A stretch of 64,000 bases of DNA from a virus: positions 13,827-77,826 of the IMG/VR virus record IMGVR_UViG_3300043172_000590. One strand, given 5' to 3'. The position numbers were made by a program, and so were the translations under genes. The notes under the pieces are model-generated. The model had not been told where the DNA came from, did not search any database, and worked only from the letters and a program-made list of their open reading frames with translations. Of this stretch, positions 309-59,724 are shown one piece after another (position 1 is the first letter of the stretch; every line of letters begins with the position of its first letter).

Positions 309-596
309 ATGAAAAAGATATTAGAATATGCAGGAGATAACCCAGGCGCTATGTCCTTTATAATCGAACTTTTAGACCCGACCAATGGAGCCGCTGGCAT
401 TATCGTCTTTAGCAAGATTGATAAAATACACTCGCTCCGTGGAACCAATTTGTATGTGATGTGGTCCGACTTATGCAATAGGGAGATGGACAAAGTTGTC
501 AAACTTTGCCGCAAATGTCCCGATGAAATACTCGCAGACGCCTGTAATAGGCAGGATTATTCTGGACGTGAACTTGTAGCGGAATATTTAAAATAG
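309..596 (+). CDS. hypothetical phage protein (early region)
   Basis: 95-aa ORF in a dense co-directional run; GNPGA/LRGTNLY-type motif resembles conserved phage hypothetical proteins. Confidence 0.7.
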   Translation: MKKILEYAGDNPGAMSFIIELLDPTNGAAGIIVFSKIDKIHSLRGTNLYVMWSDLCNREMDKVVKLCRKCPDEILADACNRQDYSGRELVAEYLK

Positions 597-2727: not shown

Positions 2728-4518
2728 ATGAAAAGAGAATTGACAGAAGCAGCCAAGGCAGCCAAGGCAATAAGAACTGAGTTAAAAGAGGAATTTCCGG
2801 GAGTTAAATTCTCGGTTAAGTCGTCCAATTTTTCAATGGGAGACAGCGTCCACATATCCTATGTTGATGGACCGTTAACAAAAGATGTAGTAATCATCAC
2901 AGGTAAGTATCAGCAGGGACATTTCGACGGAATGACAGATATGTATGAGTATTCCAACAGCAGAGACGACATACCTCAAAGCAAATACGTACAAGTTGGT
3001 CGCACCATGTCAGCAGAGACGAGGGATGCGATATGGAAACATCTACAGGAGACGTTGACCGGATGCGAGGGCAAGGATATTGAGTCTCTTATTCCTGAAT
3101 GGAACCAGTACGGATCACATTTAACCTACCGTGTATTTTCAGAGACTAACTACTATACTGAGCCTGAAAAGAAAGAGTTATCCGCATCTACCGTGGAAGG
3201 ATTAGATTTTGAAATGGAAAAAACAGTGCACACTAAGAAGGGGCACGACGTCTGGGTAGCTAAATCATCTACCCGTGTCGGCAAAGATGAGTTCAGGGAC
3301 TTGCTGGACTGCGCTAAGATGCTGGGAGGGTACTACTCTTCGTACAGTAGAGACGGAGCAGTGCCAGGTTTTCAGTTTAAATCAGATGAGGCATGCAGGG
3401 AGTTTGTAGCTAAATGTAGTAGCGAGACAAAAGAGCCGGTCGATAACACTATTGAGACATCAACAGTAACATCGAAGACGACAACAAAGAAGTCCGATGT
3501 AAAAAATGAGGTAATGGCTGCTAAGTGGCAGAAGCTTTCTGATTCATACAGAAACGAGAGCGACAAGCTGTATGACAGGTTGAAGAATGCGCAGACCAAT
3601 ACACCTAAGCGGAACAGGGAATATAATTCCAAGAAAATTGATGCTGATATATTGAGTGATGTATCTATTCTTGCTCATGGTATTGCATTAGGATACGAGG
3701 ATGGGACTTTAGCCGAAGAGTTAAAAGTATTGCAGCCAATTAAAAATAAAAGACAACTAATGATGTTTGTCCCGGGCCATGCTAATACCGGTGGATACTA
3801 CGACGCCTTTAGAGACACCGTTCCGAATTACAAAAGGAATGGCAATATCACTGCTGGATTAAATGATGTGGGTATTGAGACTGAGGCGCAAGCGGATAAG
3901 ATACTGGAATTATTGAGCGCATTGGATAATACAAGCTCAGCGGAAAAAGAGAAGAGAAAAAACGAGGACAGGATTAAGCAGTTGGAGGATAATTTTAAGT
4001 TTCAGAAAATCAAAGGATTCTTCCCTACCCCTCTCGATATGGGGCGTGAAATGCTGAGCAGATTGGGAATAACAAACGGGCAAACTATATCTGATCCATC
4101 TGCAGGGCTTGGGCATTTAGCTGCGATTGTCAAGGAAGAATATCCAGACAACACACTGAAAACATTTGAGATAAGACCCGCTCTCTCGGAAATCCTAACA
4201 CTCAAAGGATTCGATAATACGTGCGCCGACTTTCTTGAGTGCGATGAGAAATTTGATAGGTTTATTATGAACCCCCCATTTGAAAACTCACAGGATATTG
4301 ACCACGTTCGTCATGCGTACTCGTTATTAAACGATGGCGGCAGGATTGTATCTATCATGGGGTCTGGCACATTTCACAACTCTTCCAAAAAACATAAGGA
4401 GTTTCAAGCGTGGATTGACGAGATTGGCGCCGAGTATGAAACAAATCCCGAGGGCTCATTCAAGGGAGCATTTAAAAGTACAATGGTTGGCTCCTGTATA
4501 GTTGTAATTGATAAATAA
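2728..4518 (+). CDS. polyvalent protein: N-terminal LPD29-like domain plus C-terminal N6-adenine DNA methyltransferase
   Basis: N-term AKAIRTELKEEFPGVKFSV...GHFDGMTDMYEY; C-term FFPTP, DPSAGLG (motif I) and IMNPPF (motif IV). Confidence 0.85.
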   Translation: MKRELTEAAKAAKAIRTELKEEFPGVKFSVKSSNFSMGDSVHISYVDGPLTKDVVIITGKYQQGHFDGMTDMYEYSNSRDDIPQSKYVQVGRTMSAETRDAIWKHLQETLTGCEGKDIESLIPEWNQYGSHLTYRVFSETNYYTEPEKKELSASTVEGLDFEMEKTVHTKKGHDVWVAKSSTRVGKDEFRDLLDCAKMLGGYYSSYSRDGAVPGFQFKSDEACREFVAKCSSETKEPVDNTIETSTVTSKTTTKKSDVKNEVMAAKWQKLSDSYRNESDKLYDRLKNAQTNTPKRNREYNSKKIDADILSDVSILAHGIALGYEDGTLAEELKVLQPIKNKRQLMMFVPGHANTGGYYDAFRDTVPNYKRNGNITAGLNDVGIETEAQADKILELLSALDNTSSAEKEKRKNEDRIKQLEDNFKFQKIKGFFPTPLDMGREMLSRLGITNGQTISDPSAGLGHLAAIVKEEYPDNTLKTFEIRPALSEILTLKGFDNTCADFLECDEKFDRFIMNPPFENSQDIDHVRHAYSLLNDGGRIVSIMGSGTFHNSSKKHKEFQAWIDEIGAEYETNPEGSFKGAFKSTMVGSCIVVIDK

Positions 4519-54262: not shown

Positions 54263-55234
54263 CTATACAAAATCAGGCCCATCTTCTTTTTTTGTATCGG
54301 TACCTTTCTCGGCAATCTCACCTGTCTCCTTGTTGACGTTTTCAACCTTATCGACTGGTTTTTTATTTGCTACATCCGTCTTGACGAGCTCCTTCTTTTG
54401 TGCATTGGAAGCTCCGTCAGGTTTGTTTGTTACAATTTCTGCATCCTCTATGTTATCGAATCCGATAGCCACAATATTTCGCTTCTTGTCCTCATTGTTT
54501 TCTTCGGACAAATCATCAGCGTCGTTCCTCCCCTCTAGCAGATGGGCATCGTTAGAACTGTTGATAATGGATTTACACGCTCGGCTCTTGACAGTTTTAA
54601 TGCACATTTGGTCGGTAAATTTAGTATGCGCAGGGGAGTTCCCTTTTGCAGCTCCCATCATCCAAGCAGCCTTTATTTGAGCCATAGACATATCTTCAAT
54701 GTATAATGTCCCATCATCCATTTCCTTAACGGCATACGCTCCAAGAATCGCATTCTCTCTATTTTCAAATGGTTTTTCTTCCGGGGTTTCGTGCTTCACT
54801 AAAACCTTCCTACCCTTTTCTGTCCTCTTGGTTATATAAACATCTCCCTCTCTAACCACCTCTCCTTCTATTTCTTTCAGCCCAACTCTTTTTGCGACAG
54901 CAACATCTCCTTGATAGCTACGCATGAGAGTAAGTTCTGTTCCGAACACCACGAAGTAGCATTGTTTTTTAACGGGATTGAGTCCTTGCACCACCATGTC
55001 AAACAGAGAGTTGGCAATGCTTGCTTTAGAGCATATTTCGAGGGCTTTTTTCTTGTTCCGGTCCTCCACGTTCTGTAGTATCAGCCACGCAGATTTTAAT
55101 GCATTACCTGAACTGTAATTTTTCGGAAGGACAAGATCCTTAGAGTTCTCCATGTCTGCCACTCTTTTCGTTACGATATCAACTATGTTTGGCTGTGCTA
55201 CCGTAGTTTTGTTTTCGTTTGATTTTGTTGTCAT
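54263..55234 (-). CDS. recT: RecT-family single-strand annealing recombinase
   Basis: SIANSL.DMVVQGLNP.KKQCYF, RSYQG, DQM..KTV..RACK. Confidence 0.9.
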   Translation of the reverse strand: MTTKSNENKTTVAQPNIVDIVTKRVADMENSKDLVLPKNYSSGNALKSAWLILQNVEDRNKKKALEICSKASIANSLFDMVVQGLNPVKKQCYFVVFGTELTLMRSYQGDVAVAKRVGLKEIEGEVVREGDVYITKRTEKGRKVLVKHETPEEKPFENRENAILGAYAVKEMDDGTLYIEDMSMAQIKAAWMMGAAKGNSPAHTKFTDQMCIKTVKSRACKSIINSSNDAHLLEGRNDADDLSEENNEDKKRNIVAIGFDNIEDAEIVTNKPDGASNAQKKELVKTDVANKKPVDKVENVNKETGEIAEKGTDTKKEDGPDFV

Positions 55235-55465: not shown

Positions 55466-55846
55466 TTAGAGATTTATGGGAATTACCACTTCTTCTATCT
55501 CAATCATCTTTCCAGCAAACTGCGCTCTATCAAAAGAAGTGGGATTGGTTATACCAATCTTATCCTTATAGCACATTGCAGCAGTAACTAATTTAAGCCA
55601 CGATCCGAGCCCGTTATAGTATCTGCCACTTTTCTTGTCTTTAACGATAAATCCCATTCCTTCATTATTTATCATACTAAAAGCCCTCCTCAGAAGACAT
55701 ATAGACTCCAAGTGCCCTACTTTGTGTTTATGGATGAAATTAATCACCTCTCCAAGTTGCCACTCGTCTTTTGTTAAGGCACACTGCCTGCCTGGGTAGC
55801 TGTTAATAATAGACTTAAATAAGTCTTGTATTTTATGCTCTTCCAT
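55466..55846 (-). CDS. hypothetical protein
   Basis: 126-aa ORF. Confidence 0.6.
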   Translation of the reverse strand: MEEHKIQDLFKSIINSYPGRQCALTKDEWQLGEVINFIHKHKVGHLESICLLRRAFSMINNEGMGFIVKDKKSGRYYNGLGSWLKLVTAAMCYKDKIGITNPTSFDRAQFAGKMIEIEEVVIPINL

Positions 55847-55931
55847 ATTCTAGTAATTATATAATGGGCATAAGCCTCTGTATCCGTGATATCCTACATC
55901 TATAATTTTCCGGACATCCTTCCCGGGTTCT

Positions 55932-56075
55932 TCAATGATATGCTATAACTATAAAACCCACAAATAGTACGTGCAATACGAGAACACTAGCTATAATAAT
56001 AATATATATGCCATTTTTATCTTCTGAGTTAGTCCTCCTTAAGGAGCGTTTCACTACTAATTTTATACATTCCAT
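55932..56075 (-). CDS. 47-aa single-TM membrane protein
   Basis: hand translation MECIKLVVKRSLRRTNSEDKNGIYIIIIASVLVLHVLFVGFIVIAYH. Confidence 0.5.
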   Translation of the reverse strand: MECIKLVVKRSLRRTNSEDKNGIYIIIIASVLVLHVLFVGFIVIAYH

Positions 56076-56095
56076 ATTTCAATTATTTTCATATT

Positions 56096-56503
56096 AAGAC
56101 CATTATCCCTGCAAGAGGGAAGGAAGGTCTGACATCCGATATAAAGACCTACAATGTGGGTTTAAGACTTGCCTGGTTCTGCTCCCTGCTGTCGCGATTC
56201 TTTTAGTTCAACAGCAACACGATTTGCCATACGGTTTTTACAGAAATGTTTGTTTTCATTCACTCCCTTGCAGGTCTTCCGTTACGGTCAGATACGGAAA
56301 CTTTGCATTAACAAACATACAAGTACCACTACCGACTTTGATTACCCTCGATATAATCAGGGATGGAGGTCTCGCTAAACTCCGTAAGGACAGCCGAAGT
56401 AAGCACAACCATTACGACCTGAGAAGTAAAGTTTCCCCAGCCATCCAAACGGAATTAATATTTTATTTGTGAGATTCATAATAAGTTGTGCTTATTCAAC
56501 TGC
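56096..56503 (-). ncRNA. structured ~410-nt leader with a 34-codon uORF (56479-56375)
   Basis: AATTCCGT..GGATGGCTGGGG/CTTCGGCTGTCC..ACGGAGTT stem with G-U pairs on -; further stems 56144-56278 and 56097-56130. Confidence 0.55.
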
Positions 56504-56505
56504 CA

Positions 56506-56535
56506 CAAATCTACACATAAAATCTTTAAATCAAA
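56506..56535 (-). promoter_or_regulatory. Bacteroidota promoter (-33/-7)
   Basis: TTTG-N18-TAGATTTG. Confidence 0.7.
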
Positions 56536-56558
56536 ATAATTAAGAACGATTTTAAATA

Positions 56559-56629
56559 GCAGAACGAGCGATTATCCCCTTCTCGTTATCTCTACCTCCG
56601 TTATCTGGGTGAGGCACTTTTTGTTCTGC
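56559..56629 (-). ncRNA. small structured RNA (array unit F)
   Basis: GCAGAAC/GTTCTGC closing stem; three GATAA repeats inside. Confidence 0.4.
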
Positions 56630-56712
56630 ATGTTACGAGTCTGCAACGCTTCGAGTGTCTGAGCATCCGCAAATTTCCCAATTACTATATTGCTCATTTT
56701 ATCCGGATAGCG

Positions 56713-56817
56713 TGGAGAAGCAAGGACTCGAACCTCGATGTAACCATCACACTAACGAGCAGTTTCCAGCATCAAAGCCTTCGGTGTCTCCTACTTACAT
56801 AATGTGCTACCTTCCCC
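56713..56817 (-). ncRNA. tRNA-like RNA (acceptor stem plus T-arm, atypical D/anticodon region)
   Basis: GGGGAAG/CTTCTCC-A acceptor with G3-U70; CGAGG-TTCGAGT-CCTTG T-arm; no encoded CCA. Confidence 0.7.
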
Positions 56818-56849
56818 TGATTCCCCGTCTTTCCGGGCTGTCAGTGTTT

Positions 56850-56964
56850 GTATAGATTTTAGCGTATGATTACCTCTATCAACGAAGGCCCCCTATCCAC
56901 TAATTAAGCAATGCCATCTATACCGTCAATCCCTAACACCTCAGAGATTCTGCTTGATAGGGTA
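56850..56964 (-). ncRNA. possible pseudoknotted RNA (array unit E)
   Basis: crossing stems 56850-57/56916-23 and 56871-82/56954-64. Confidence 0.35.
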
Positions 56965-56975
56965 TGATGTTTTCT

Positions 56976-57072
56976 AAAAACAGAGAGGGTCGATATTTAT
57001 ACATCCAGACCTCGACTGGGATAGTTGGTTTTAATGAGACCGCTCTAACTCGTTTTTTACCTCTCTGTTTTT
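56976..57072 (-). ncRNA. small structured RNA (array unit D)
   Basis: perfect 13-bp closing stem AAAAACAGAGAGG/CCTCTCTGTTTTT. Confidence 0.55.
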
Positions 57073-57120
57073 TCGCAAATAATGATCCAACACATTATAG
57101 ACGAACTATCAATATTTTCA

Positions 57121-57340
57121 AATCTGACCGTCTGCCGGGACGGGATACTGTAGGCGTGGATTCCTTGTGCTTTTGACATGGTTATTACACAGCTATTGCC
57201 TAGGCCCCACTGGTATCTCACCAATTGCCAATATCTCTCCACCAAACACGCCACTGGCAATGACTAGCAACTTTTTTTCATCGTTAATCAGATGGTGCCG
57301 CACAAAATGTACCGCCTGCTTGTTTGTTTTCGACCAGATT
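57121..57340 (-). ncRNA. ~220-nt structured RNA (array unit C)
   Basis: AATCTGGTCG/CGGTCAGATT closing stem (G-U pairs favour -); inner ATTGCCAGT/ATTGGCAAT. Confidence 0.45.
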
Positions 57341-57351
57341 ATACTTTAAAG

Positions 57352-57441
57352 AACAGGGAGCGGAGTTTGTGCATGCGCTAGCTTTCTCACGAATTGTTTA
57401 TCCACACTATCCAAGGGTCGCACCCTTTGCAACTCTCTGTT
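57352..57441 (-). ncRNA. small structured RNA (array unit B)
   Basis: AACAGAGAG/CTCCCTGTT ends; inner AAGGGT/ACCCTT hairpin. Confidence 0.45.
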
Positions 57442-57471
57442 TATATTTTCAATGAACGAATAATCAAATAT

Positions 57472-57609
57472 AAGATGCTTCTATTCTTATCGCCCCATTC
57501 TCTCTTTGTTGTTCCAAATACTGGCAGTGGGCAACTTTAGTCTATCATATCCTCCACAGGGAACAATCCCCAATCAAATTACTACGATAAGCGTCAAACA
57601 AAGCATCTT
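57472..57609 (-). ncRNA. rod-like ~140-nt RNA (array unit A)
   Basis: nested stems AAGATGCTT/AAGCATCTT, CTTATCG/CGATAAG and TTGTTCC/GGAACAA. Confidence 0.55.
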
Positions 57610-57642
57610 TTTCTCGCATACTACAGGTTTGTCTTCAAAAAT

Positions 57643-59724
57643 CTATTTAATCAATAATTTATAATAAGGTTTTCCTTCTGCATGAATGCTATTTCCCTTC
57701 TCGTCAGTATCAACAATACATGCTGGACACTTAGGATTGTTAATAAGTATCTCCCCGCATTCAGGGCACTTGTAGAGTTTCGCCACTCTTAGGTTTATTA
57801 TCTGGGATCTCGTCTCAATAATCTCATTTGTTGACTCCCTATTGTCGATGAATATGGGAGCGCTAGCATCATCGAACTTGCATATCTCATTAATAACTTC
57901 CATACCGGCATTAACCCTCTTTGCATCGTTGGCATCCTGGTATGGTACGCCATCAAGTAGTCCGATACAGCATTGTTCAAAACCACCATTCCCAAGCTCT
58001 TTGAACATTTTAAATTTGATGCCGGAAAATCTTTCATTGACCCGATTTTCGAGTTCGGTATATTTTTCTGTCTCAAATCTCTCAACAACCATCAGCTCTT
58101 TTTCCTTCGATGCAAGATTACTCTCTATTCCCTTCTTCTCATTTGTCAGCTCCAATACCCGGTCATTATCCTTTTGGATATCGTCACGAACCCTAAGATC
58201 TTTATTGATTGCTCCGATTTTAGTCTGTAGTTCAGATTCCTTGGATGTCAGTTCGGTGTCAGTTTCAGGCTTGTTGTTCTCGTCGAAATGCTCAATCTCA
58301 TTTTTCAATACACTCAGTAACTTATTTAGCCCAATAAGAGTGACATCGCCAGAAAGTGCCTCTTCCAAATTCTCTTCCTTGATAGGATTAGCGACAAGCT
58401 CCTTTAATTCCCCTTCGGAAACATGTACTGCAGCTTTTGCGGCTTCTCTCTTATCTTCCAGTTCTGTTATCGCGGACTTAGCATCATCTATTTTCTTAAC
58501 AATCGCTTTACCTTCCGTATTGATGAGGGCCTTTCCATCAATAACAAACTGGCTGAAATCTACTTTCATAGACTCCTTTTTCTCCTCTATATCCCCTTCT
58601 GGCAACGATTGCTTGCAGGCAGGGCAGGTAAATTCACTATCATTAAACTTGAGGCTCTTTTTATTTATTTCTGCCCAGTCTTCTAAGAGAGTTTTTTTAT
58701 TGGCGGTAAGCGTTTCTACCTTTCTTTCGCAGAGACCTATATCCATTGTTAGTCCAGGAATCTTATTGCCAGACATTTTGATTTGTCCCTCTGCTAATTC
58801 AATCTTTTTCTTATGCGCCTTATATGCAATATTTAGCCCTTTCCCAATATCCGCCTTTCTGGATTCAATATCTAACTCTATCGGGCCTTTTTTTCTTACA
58901 AGCGCAAGTTTCTTATTTGCAATGCCTTCCTCAGCTTTCGAAGCATCGAGTATTTTTCCGCTAACAGTCCCTTTCTCTTGAGTCAATACAAGCAGATATC
59001 CTTCTAATTTATTCCAATCAAGAACCTCCGGTATTTTACTCAACCTTTCTTTTATCGCAGAACCCTTGTCTTTCAACTCGTCCTTAAGCTTAGCAATAGA
59101 GGCTTTCACGCTTTTTTTATAGAGATCCATGCTTTTACCGTTCAGGATATCAAGCATCTTGATAAACTCCTCGTTGTTTTCTGCAATATCAGCATCAGTG
59201 CGTTCTCCGCCAGACATCTTAGCGAGCATTGCCCGTCTCTTAGCCCAAGGGACCTGCTTGTTGTCAAAAAAGTATAATGGGTTTGTAATCAACTTAAATA
59301 CTTCTTCGCTTATGATTGCTGAGACATACGCATTGTATTCGCCGATATTAACCGGGACGCCATCGTACCAACACAGAGTTTCGTTGCCTTTGAATACCTC
59401 CTCTTCTTTCCCTTTGGGCTTTACCCATTTTTCTTGGAGTGCCCTCTTAAGAATAGTTTCTCTTCCATCCAAGAGTAAGACACCTTCGACAGAATGGACC
59501 ACTCTTGACATTGGAATATTATTCTCGTCCAATGTCTTTATTGAGAAGTCGTGATTTCCAGCTGCATCCTTACCGAATAGGAGCCAAGTGAACCCATTGA
59601 GCTGAGTGCTCTTGAATGTTCCGTTGTCTCCCCATATATCCGTAATATCTTTATTGTAATTTACTTCGAGGTTTATCGCCCCCATGAAGTATGAAAATTT
59701 TAAGCTCTTAACTATTGCTTCCAT
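57643..59724 (-). CDS. SbcC/Rad50-like coiled-coil ATPase
   Basis: GDNGTFKST Walker A, long coiled coil with CPAC hook, PIFIDNRES Walker B, extra C-terminal Zn ribbon. Confidence 0.9.
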   Translation of the reverse strand: MEAIVKSLKFSYFMGAINLEVNYNKDITDIWGDNGTFKSTQLNGFTWLLFGKDAAGNHDFSIKTLDENNIPMSRVVHSVEGVLLLDGRETILKRALQEKWVKPKGKEEEVFKGNETLCWYDGVPVNIGEYNAYVSAIISEEVFKLITNPLYFFDNKQVPWAKRRAMLAKMSGGERTDADIAENNEEFIKMLDILNGKSMDLYKKSVKASIAKLKDELKDKGSAIKERLSKIPEVLDWNKLEGYLLVLTQEKGTVSGKILDASKAEEGIANKKLALVRKKGPIELDIESRKADIGKGLNIAYKAHKKKIELAEGQIKMSGNKIPGLTMDIGLCERKVETLTANKKTLLEDWAEINKKSLKFNDSEFTCPACKQSLPEGDIEEKKESMKVDFSQFVIDGKALINTEGKAIVKKIDDAKSAITELEDKREAAKAAVHVSEGELKELVANPIKEENLEEALSGDVTLIGLNKLLSVLKNEIEHFDENNKPETDTELTSKESELQTKIGAINKDLRVRDDIQKDNDRVLELTNEKKGIESNLASKEKELMVVERFETEKYTELENRVNERFSGIKFKMFKELGNGGFEQCCIGLLDGVPYQDANDAKRVNAGMEVINEICKFDDASAPIFIDNRESTNEIIETRSQIINLRVAKLYKCPECGEILINNPKCPACIVDTDEKGNSIHAEGKPYYKLLIK

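Follow-up and report, generated by a model that had tools for sequence, protein, structure and literature searches.

An alanine-type tRNA-like RNA gene with a large D-loop insert and no anticodon arm in an uncultured marine phage

We analysed 64,000 nucleotides of phage DNA (the window), taken from a phage record that is complete, spans 77.8 kb, and has direct terminal repeats; the window covers its bases 13827-77826. The phage is uncultured and marine, its genome has ~40% G+C, and past window position ~13,400 nearly all of its genes are carried by the minus strand. One stretch of the window is a recombination module that encodes an SbcC-like ATPase, a protein of 126 residues, RecT, an HNH endonuclease, and a metallo-hydrolase. 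An interval of ~1.8 kb that is poor in open reading frames (ORFs) separates the ATPase from the 126-aa ORF, and within it lies a 105-nt RNA gene, hereafter the element, which can be read directly from the minus strand (Table 1). The interval has stops in all six frames, and its small ORFs score weakly for coding. No iterons or tandem repeats were found in it, so that neither an origin of replication nor a repeat array is supported. The motif TAnnTTTG, the -7 motif of Bacteroidota type, is present on its minus strand at 57472, 56513, and 56319, three of the 23 copies in the window; there is no promoter motif directly upstream of the element, for which the copies at 57472 and 56513 are the nearest. 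At default settings ARAGORN reports no tRNA or tmRNA gene in the phage genome, and scans of 27 phage proteins against PHROG and Pfam returned no SmpB, Ro, RtcB, CCA-adding enzyme, or protein resembling an aminoacyl-tRNA synthetase.

The same interval holds a few other features. A 41-codon ORF starts 16 nt 3' of the element and scores 0.165 per codon for coding, where the 90th and 97th percentiles of small ORFs are -0.02 and 0.29 and the 126-aa ORF reaches 0.33. Four bases past the 3' end of the element there is a perfect 10-nt palindrome (TATCCGGATA). Upstream of the element, 71 nt lie between the arms of a perfect 13-bp inverted repeat (AAAAACAGAGAGG / CCTCTCTGTTTTT), whose motif has a third, partial copy; the repeat belongs to an array that is itself poor in ORFs.

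Table 1. Positions of the features discussed, given in the window unless a genome, record, or contig is named
Feature	Position	Strand	Remarks
SbcC-like ATPase	57643-59724		Recombination module around the element
ORF-poor gap	55847-57642		Between ATPase and 126-aa ORF
126-aa ORF	55466-55846		Same module; downstream of the element
RecT	54263-55234		Same module
HNH endonuclease and metallo-hydrolase			Further members of the module
Third, partial copy of inverted-repeat motif	57433-57445
13-bp inverted repeat	56976-57072
Element	56713-56817	-	105 nt
Acceptor stem 5' strand GGGGAAG (G1-G7)	56811-56817	-	G3 pairs with U70; pair probability ~1.0 folded in isolation; stem as in real phage tRNA-Ala genes
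Connector G-U-A	56808-56810	-	Extra G (insertion in R1), then U8 and A9 (positions 8-9 in Rfam tRNA model)
D-stem 5' strand GCAC	56804-56807	-	A14 follows at 56803; two covariance-model alignments and look-alike comparison
D-loop insert, ~46 nt	56757-56802	-	Predicted tiered hairpin (constrained fold)
Insert closing helix AGUAG/CUGCU	56795-56791 with 56762-56758	-	Constrained fold
GUUA (D-loop end, G19-U-U-A21) and D-stem 3' strand GUGU	56749-56756	-	Look-alike offset and R1 alignment
11-nt remnant	56738-56748	-	RF00005 and R1 alignments, constrained fold
T-arm CGAGG, loop UUCGAGU, CCUUG	56721-56737	-	Read from sequence; T-arm identical in phage tRNA-Gln genes
Acceptor 3' strand CUUCUCC and A73	56713-56720	-	Read from sequence; next bases CGC
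10-nt palindrome	56700-56709
41-codon ORF	56572-56697	-
12-bp minihelix	Genome bases 430-461	-	Outside the window
Canonical phage tRNA-Ala(UGC)	L085:3115-3187	-
68-nt tRNA-Ala	L025:8828-8895	-
64-nt mini-cloverleaf	L014:601-663	-
tRNA-Thr(GGU)-like gene	L019:1189-1294	-
D-loop-insert RNAs	L143:4339-4449; L152:9365-9474; L154; L162:8734-8836; L163:1571-1679; L147		Unannotated; uncultured phages
~105-nt RNAs with tmRNA-domain motifs	L148:9859-9964; L158:4111-4216; L164:7002-7107; L153:9343-9447		In phage tRNA clusters
Elements of phage Joe	L018:30-127; 673-752; 1482-1561; 2006-2107; 2872-2973		KX815338
DS6A TLD-only RNA	JN698994 28478-28560		83 nt

The element keeps the top half and the D-stem of a tRNA, yet it has neither an anticodon arm nor a variable loop. 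After the 5' strand of the acceptor there is one G and then UAGCACA, the string that in tRNAs comprises U8, A9, the 5' strand of the D-stem, and A14. The GCAC of this string pairs with GUGU; the loop between them measures 51 nt, against 8-11 nt for the D-loops of tRNAs, and its last bases are GUUA. Several observations back this pairing: GUGU is the sole 4-mer of the element complementary to GCAC; it stands at an offset of 50, as in the related RNAs of contigs L143 and L152; the Rfam tRNA model and a model built from other phages (R1, below) agree on the alignment; and we estimate at ~0.002 the chance of finding GUUA with a complementary 4-mer anywhere in the body. The tiered hairpin predicted for the insert has an apical helix GGC-UUUGAU-GCU in the constrained fold. 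Past the D-stem, an 11-nt remnant (GAUGGUUACAU) replaces position 26, the anticodon arm, and the variable loop, a region of 23 nt in tRNAs, and it can form at most a 3-bp stub, AUG-GUUA-CAU. Since these 11 nt are all that lies between the D-stem and the T-stem, the element cannot decode. The bases CGC after the discriminator imply that CCA is not encoded and needs post-transcriptional addition.

Much of this anatomy had been anticipated. The original prediction described a 7-bp acceptor (GGGGAAG/CTTCTCC) with G3-U70, a discriminator A, and a canonical T-arm (CGAGG-TTCGAGT-CCTTG), and it reported neither an anticodon nor a tag reading frame; our reading of the minus strand agrees with it on each of these points. 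Its account of the interior fared worse. The D region was said to be stemless, and two covariance models align a D-stem there; the helix ATGTAA/TTACAT that was to enclose the centre has both strands present, but it crosses this D-stem and has an ensemble probability of 0.00. The energy of the fold is unexceptional (z = -1.29). With flanks of at least 100 nt on each side, the ensemble probabilities are 2-7% for the acceptor pairs and 5-24% for the T-arm pairs, and the minimum-energy fold with 100-nt flanks retains both the acceptor and the T-arm.

The acceptor is of the alanine type well beyond the G-U pair. We scanned IMG/VR for genes starting with GGGGAAN-UAGCUCA and ending with UUCUCCA, and 117 of the 119 matches were typed as tRNA-Ala, the anticodon being UGC in 113. 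Three of the 119 share the exact acceptor of the element, including the one on L085, a canonical tRNA-Ala(UGC). All seven acceptor pairs and A73 are thus those of genuine phage tRNA-Ala genes, and the G-U pair belongs to a complete alanine stem: G1-C72, G2-C71, G3-U70, G4-C69, and A73. The claim that this is a tRNA-like RNA of alanine identity without an anticodon, which had leaned on G3-U70 and A73, is supported. It is well established that the alanyl-tRNA synthetase (AlaRS) recognises features of the acceptor and charges minihelices devoid of anticodon, and that RNase P, RNase Z, the CCA-adding enzyme, and EF-Tu likewise read the half of the molecule made of the acceptor and the T-arm. The interior tells less: a first global alignment to the D- and anticodon arms of tRNA-Ala gave P=0.016, and a stricter test on the interior alone gave P=0.15, with tRNA-Ala not the best-matching type. 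Contig L025 carries a second kind of anticodon-less alanine tRNA. It is 68 nt long, has the acceptor of the element and canonical D- and T-arms, and retains only GAG-GGCA-CUC of an anticodon arm; ARAGORN misses it, and its score on RF00005 is 49.4 bits.

Taken alone, the scores of general models and the descriptor counts make the resemblance to tRNAs real but modest. The checks named beforehand, ARAGORN and the Rfam covariance models, gave no call of tRNA or tmRNA, and the match to the Rfam tRNA model (RF00005) is below threshold, at 17.1 bits for a gathering score of 29. Converted from the E-value of the model, this corresponds to a genome-wide E of ~0.03 for one family. Rfam was searched at gathering scores over the whole window and at E<=10 over 55700-57750; nothing besides this weak match was found, and mascRNA in particular gave none. 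We also used a descriptor that requires a 5-bp T-stem, a TTCRANY loop, and an abutting 7-bp acceptor with at most one G-U pair. It finds two sites in the genome, for 0.08 expected from 200 Markov nulls (P=0.07 for at least one site, P=0.01 for at least two), and a relaxed version reveals no tRNA-like units in the array besides the two already known.

The architecture recurs in other phages. We scanned IMG/VR for GGGGAAG followed by 61-91 nt, GGTTCGANTCC, three bases, and CTTCTCCA (25 fixed bases in all), which returned 34 stretches of 90-120 nt with an alanine acceptor. At default settings, ARAGORN classes 32 of them as neither tRNA nor tmRNA, calling only a tmRNA of 149 nt (L160) and an odd 93-nt tRNA-Pro (L173); when introns are allowed, it assigns contradictory anticodons. 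Most of the 34 fall into three groups: 1) RNAs with a canonical D-arm and a body of 40-60 nt in place of the anticodon arm; 2) RNAs of ~105 nt similar to the tmRNA domain (L148, L153, L158, L164); and 3) RNAs with an insert in the D-loop, of 45-50 nt in L143, L152/L154, L162, and L163 and of 18 nt in L147, making up five distinct sequences. The element parses exactly as a member of the third group. The anticodon arm is a stub in L143, L152/L154, and L162, and L163 retains a 4-bp arm with a 7-nt loop. The inserts of the element, L143, L152, and L162 are predicted to fold alike, in three tiers, of which the closing helix has 5 bp and the short apical helix is capped in most cases by a loop of six bases, and the sequence of the element's insert shows no similarity to those of the look-alikes (best local alignment P=0.85).

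Across six sequences, 97.9% of the cells in the acceptor, D-stem, and T-stem are paired, a share that does not exceed 62.5% once the partners are slid. Both bases have changed in one pair of the D-stem and in two of the T-stem. The D-stem change is compensatory, A12-U23 in the element for U12-A23 in the look-alikes. A covariance model built from four look-alikes with the element left out (R1) matches the phage genome only at the element, over its full length (32.0 bits, E 2.4e-6), in a comparison where the invariant G3-U70 and most of the 32 bits follow from design, since the look-alikes were selected by the element's own acceptor and T-loop. MAFFT placed the 3' strand of the D-stem differently in two runs. 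We found no publication describing this group of alanine-acceptor RNAs with D-loop inserts.

Closer relatives did not turn up. None of the collections searched contains a close homologue of the complete element or of the phage that carries it, and blastn of the 1.9-kb region against 50,697 phage records gave no match. An identical SbcC-like ATPase is encoded on a second contig; no relative above 36% identity was found in 5.8 billion proteins, nor any in the IMG/VR pattern scan. The nearest named relatives, at ~32% identity, include that of Cellulophaga phage phi46:3, which has the gene order of this phage but without the gap. The downstream 126-aa ORF has no relatives in these searches. RecT has relatives of 36-53% identity, and the loci that we fetched for them contain no tRNA and no ORF-free gap above 736 nt. 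The idea that the element is an attP copy of the end of a host tRNA was rejected because the T-arm and acceptor have no exact 21-mer or 20-mer match in 185,579 species genomes. Single exact matches on L014 and L015 are other small tRNA-like elements and not homologues. The former, on a high-GC metagenome contig, is a 64-nt mini-cloverleaf just upstream of a tRNA-Gly(UCC). Between its acceptor and its T-arm it has two hairpins, one of 5 bp and one of 6 bp whose loop is 3 nt long. It is identical to the element over the 27 nt preceding the discriminator, differs in having A3-U70 and G73, and matches mascRNA weakly (20.7 bits). The tRNA-like element on L015 is ~49 nt long.

Other small RNAs that carry parts of a tRNA came to light during these searches. 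The second descriptor site of the phage genome is a perfect 12-bp minihelix of 32 nt, in which a 7-bp acceptor-like stem is stacked on a 5-bp T-stem with the loop TTCGATT. It starts 22 nt past the stop of an ORF that is small and Cys-rich, a TATATTTG promoter motif follows at a distance of ~90 nt, and the minihelix bears no alanine marks (U1-G72, A3-U70, discriminator C). In Streptomyces phage Joe, five of the six spacers of a 3-kb early operon hold an unannotated element made of a 5-bp acceptor-like stem, an 11-nt bulge of the ACCGGCAGACA type, and a T-stem of 6 bp that carries the loop TTCGAGT; both stems covary between copies. Contig L019 has, beside a tRNA-Asp, an otherwise canonical tRNA-Thr(GGU)-like gene missed by ARAGORN, in which an insert of ~41 nt follows the 5' strand of the anticodon stem and precedes the loop.

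We hold with middling confidence that the element specifies a processed and probably alanylated mimic derived from tRNA-Ala. Its features suggest the following course. From a longer transcript that includes the element, RNase P would release the 5' end at G1, with RNase Z or exonucleases removing what lies past A73 and the CCA-adding enzyme of the host finishing the 3' end. Since AlaRS reads only the acceptor end, the RNA would probably be charged. These steps would yield a stable mimic of ~108 nt that could engage AlaRS, EF-Tu, or nucleases and sensors directed at tRNAs, and that would pair with no codon. Its specific activity probably resides in the hairpin inserted at the junction of D-loop and elbow. 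More tentatively, the element and the D-loop-insert RNAs might form an undescribed class of phage RNAs, i.e., non-decoding, alanine-accepting shells with a cargo hairpin in the D-loop. Such shells might capture or mislead a host factor that reads the shape or the charge of tRNAs, e.g., AlaRS, EF-Tu, a factor of ribosome rescue or of the stringent response, or a defence nuclease directed at tRNAs.

A number of arguments bear on whether the element could instead be a dead, functionless tRNA-Ala gene whose D-loop gained an insert and whose anticodon arm was deleted. Its ends, its U8-A14 string, and its GUUA with the D-stem are all of the tRNA-Ala type, its score falls short of the Rfam tRNA threshold, its fold energy is ordinary, the ORF-poor DNA around it may itself be decaying, and no relatives testify to its conservation. 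But neutral decay should strike the top half and the interior alike, and here no pair is broken among the 16 of the acceptor, D-stem, and T-stem, the T-loop is canonical, and the interior is not recognisably tRNA-Ala, which is unlike uniform decay. The D-stem has a compensatory change, and several unrelated phage contigs show the two lesions again with inserts of equal length. Plain decay does not explain these observations, and we regard a relic as unlikely. The original prediction had offered a degenerate tRNA as its alternative: the derivation from tRNA-Ala stands, and the intact top half and D-stem and the occurrence of the layout in other phages speak against degeneration.

It is also rather improbable, to a slightly greater degree, that the element is only a processing signal similar to a t-element, at which RNase P and RNase Z cut the transcript and free an RNA without a role whose alanine stem is merely inherited. 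The element has the acceptor-like stem and T-arm of the top-half elements, its position appears to be internal to a transcript (given the nearest TAnnTTTG motifs), and a possible 41-codon ORF follows it. The same genome has a bare minihelix just after a gene, and the Joe operon has its covarying top-half mimics. However, cutting requires no D-stem, no 46-nt D-loop hairpin, and no full alanine set, all of which the minihelix of the same genome does without; the body of the element, at 73 nt, is far above the size of this minihelix or of the Joe elements, the downstream ORF is weakly coding, and the position of the element beside a small ORF is uncertain.

The original prediction preferred the layout of the tRNA-like domain (TLD) of tmRNA, and from this would follow a minimal, TLD-only tmRNA that titrates SmpB and blocks ribosome rescue in the host. 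The precedent is the mycobacteriophage DS6A, for which a TLD-only ('CDS-less') tmRNA has been described (PMC4131195, PMC11915505); a molecule similar to this RNA is reported to inhibit tmRNA strongly in E. coli, perhaps by titrating SmpB (PMC4131195; repeated in PMC11915505). The element shares with the domain G3-U70, A73, a length of ~100 nt, and an acceptor and T-arm without an anticodon, and some IMG/VR RNAs with its acceptor do bear tmRNA-domain motifs. We located the DS6A RNA and used it as a positive control: the tmRNA model RF00023 recovers it with 43.2 bits (E 4.8e-16) even with 312 model positions missing, whereas it gives no match to the element at E<=10. The ARAGORN search for tmRNAs at a 60% threshold found nothing at the element either. 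The motifs GG...GAC and GGAC of the domain are missing, with GUAGCACAUU after the acceptor and GGUUACAU before the T-arm, and the element has U8-A9, A14, a D-stem, and G19-U-U-A21 of the tRNA type, where the tmRNA domain has no D-stem. Judged by sequence comparison, then, the element is not a tmRNA tRNA-like domain by descent. The null result of RF00023 and the missing motifs leave the titration of SmpB unsupported, and we consider such a decoy very unlikely. The IMG/VR RNAs with tmRNA-domain motifs (L148, L153, L158, and L164) are ~105 nt long and lie in phage tRNA clusters. They have the acceptor GGGGAAG/CUUCUCC-A, AAAGG..GAC after it, and GGAC or AGAC before the T-arm; they resemble very small or tag-less tmRNAs and go uncalled by ARAGORN.

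There is hardly any probability left for a working tRNA with one or two unusual small introns. Allowing introns at a 70% threshold, ARAGORN draws the element as Ser(GGA) in which 21 extra nucleotides precede the anticodon loop CUGGAAA, the spot at which the tRNA-Thr-like gene of L019 has its ~41-nt insert; this drawing requires a D-stem of 3 bp, a D-loop of 5 nt that lacks GG, and an unpaired variable region of 20 nt, joins an alanine acceptor to a serine anticodon, and comes from a setting that yields more than 100 'genes' in the genome, and we know of no route by which bacteria splice such tRNA inserts. A chance resemblance in non-coding DNA, which would fit the modest genome-wide E and a candidate drawn from very many screened windows, is just as hard to credit because the T-arm and acceptor come with a full tRNA-Ala acceptor, UAGCNCA, and GUUA with a D-stem partner at the offset of the look-alikes.

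If the element is the processed alanine mimic that we favour, it falls outside the functions generally ascribed to phage tRNAs, which are usually explained by the supply of codons or by the replacement of tRNAs cut by host defences. An alanine tRNA with the features for processing and charging but no anticodon serves neither end. Should the form with a D-loop insert be functional, then phages would have repeatedly converted an alanine tRNA scaffold into a molecule that is not an adaptor. The alanine scaffold is especially easy to reuse in this way because AlaRS reads only the acceptor end. As the element shows, the standard finders of tRNA and tmRNA miss the whole group.

Several RNAs come close to the element. 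The canonical phage tRNA-Ala(UGC) of L085 has an identical acceptor and discriminator; both share UAGCNCA after the acceptor and GUUA with the 3' strand of the D-stem, and the UUCGAGU T-loop of the element is common in the phage tRNA-Ala group. The element differs by its ~46-nt D-loop insert, by having 11 instead of 23 nt after the D-stem, and by one extra G after the acceptor. The resemblance to the D-loop-insert RNAs extends to traits independent of the search design: D-stem halves that are 45-50 nt apart in five RNAs (18 nt in L147), a tiered D-loop hairpin, an anticodon stub in most, and a total length of 97-111 nt. Most of these RNAs have GGUUA before the 3' half of the D-stem, where the element has CGUUA-GUGU; they have a variable loop AGGUC and no extra G, whereas the element lacks the loop and has the G after the acceptor; and they lie upstream of the terminase (in the L152 type, upstream of both an ACP-like ORF and the terminase), whereas the element lies in a recombination module. 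A single phage RNA of such a kind is in print, the TLD-only tmRNA of DS6A. Like the element, it is phage-encoded, ~80-105 nt long, and endowed with a GGGG... acceptor, G3-U70, A73, and a canonical T-arm, and both do without an anticodon, a tag frame, and an encoded CCA. The DS6A RNA alone has the tmRNA signature, with GG and CGAC following the acceptor, GGCAC preceding the T-arm, and a P2 helix; the element alone has a D-stem of the tRNA type and no match to RF00023. Finally, the t-elements of plant mitochondria and mascRNA also mimic the acceptor and T-arm within a longer transcript, a mimicry that in the element would likewise recruit RNase P and RNase Z. They are short and carry no identity set for aminoacylation, whereas the alanine acceptor of the element is complete and comes with a D-stem and a large hairpin in the D-loop.
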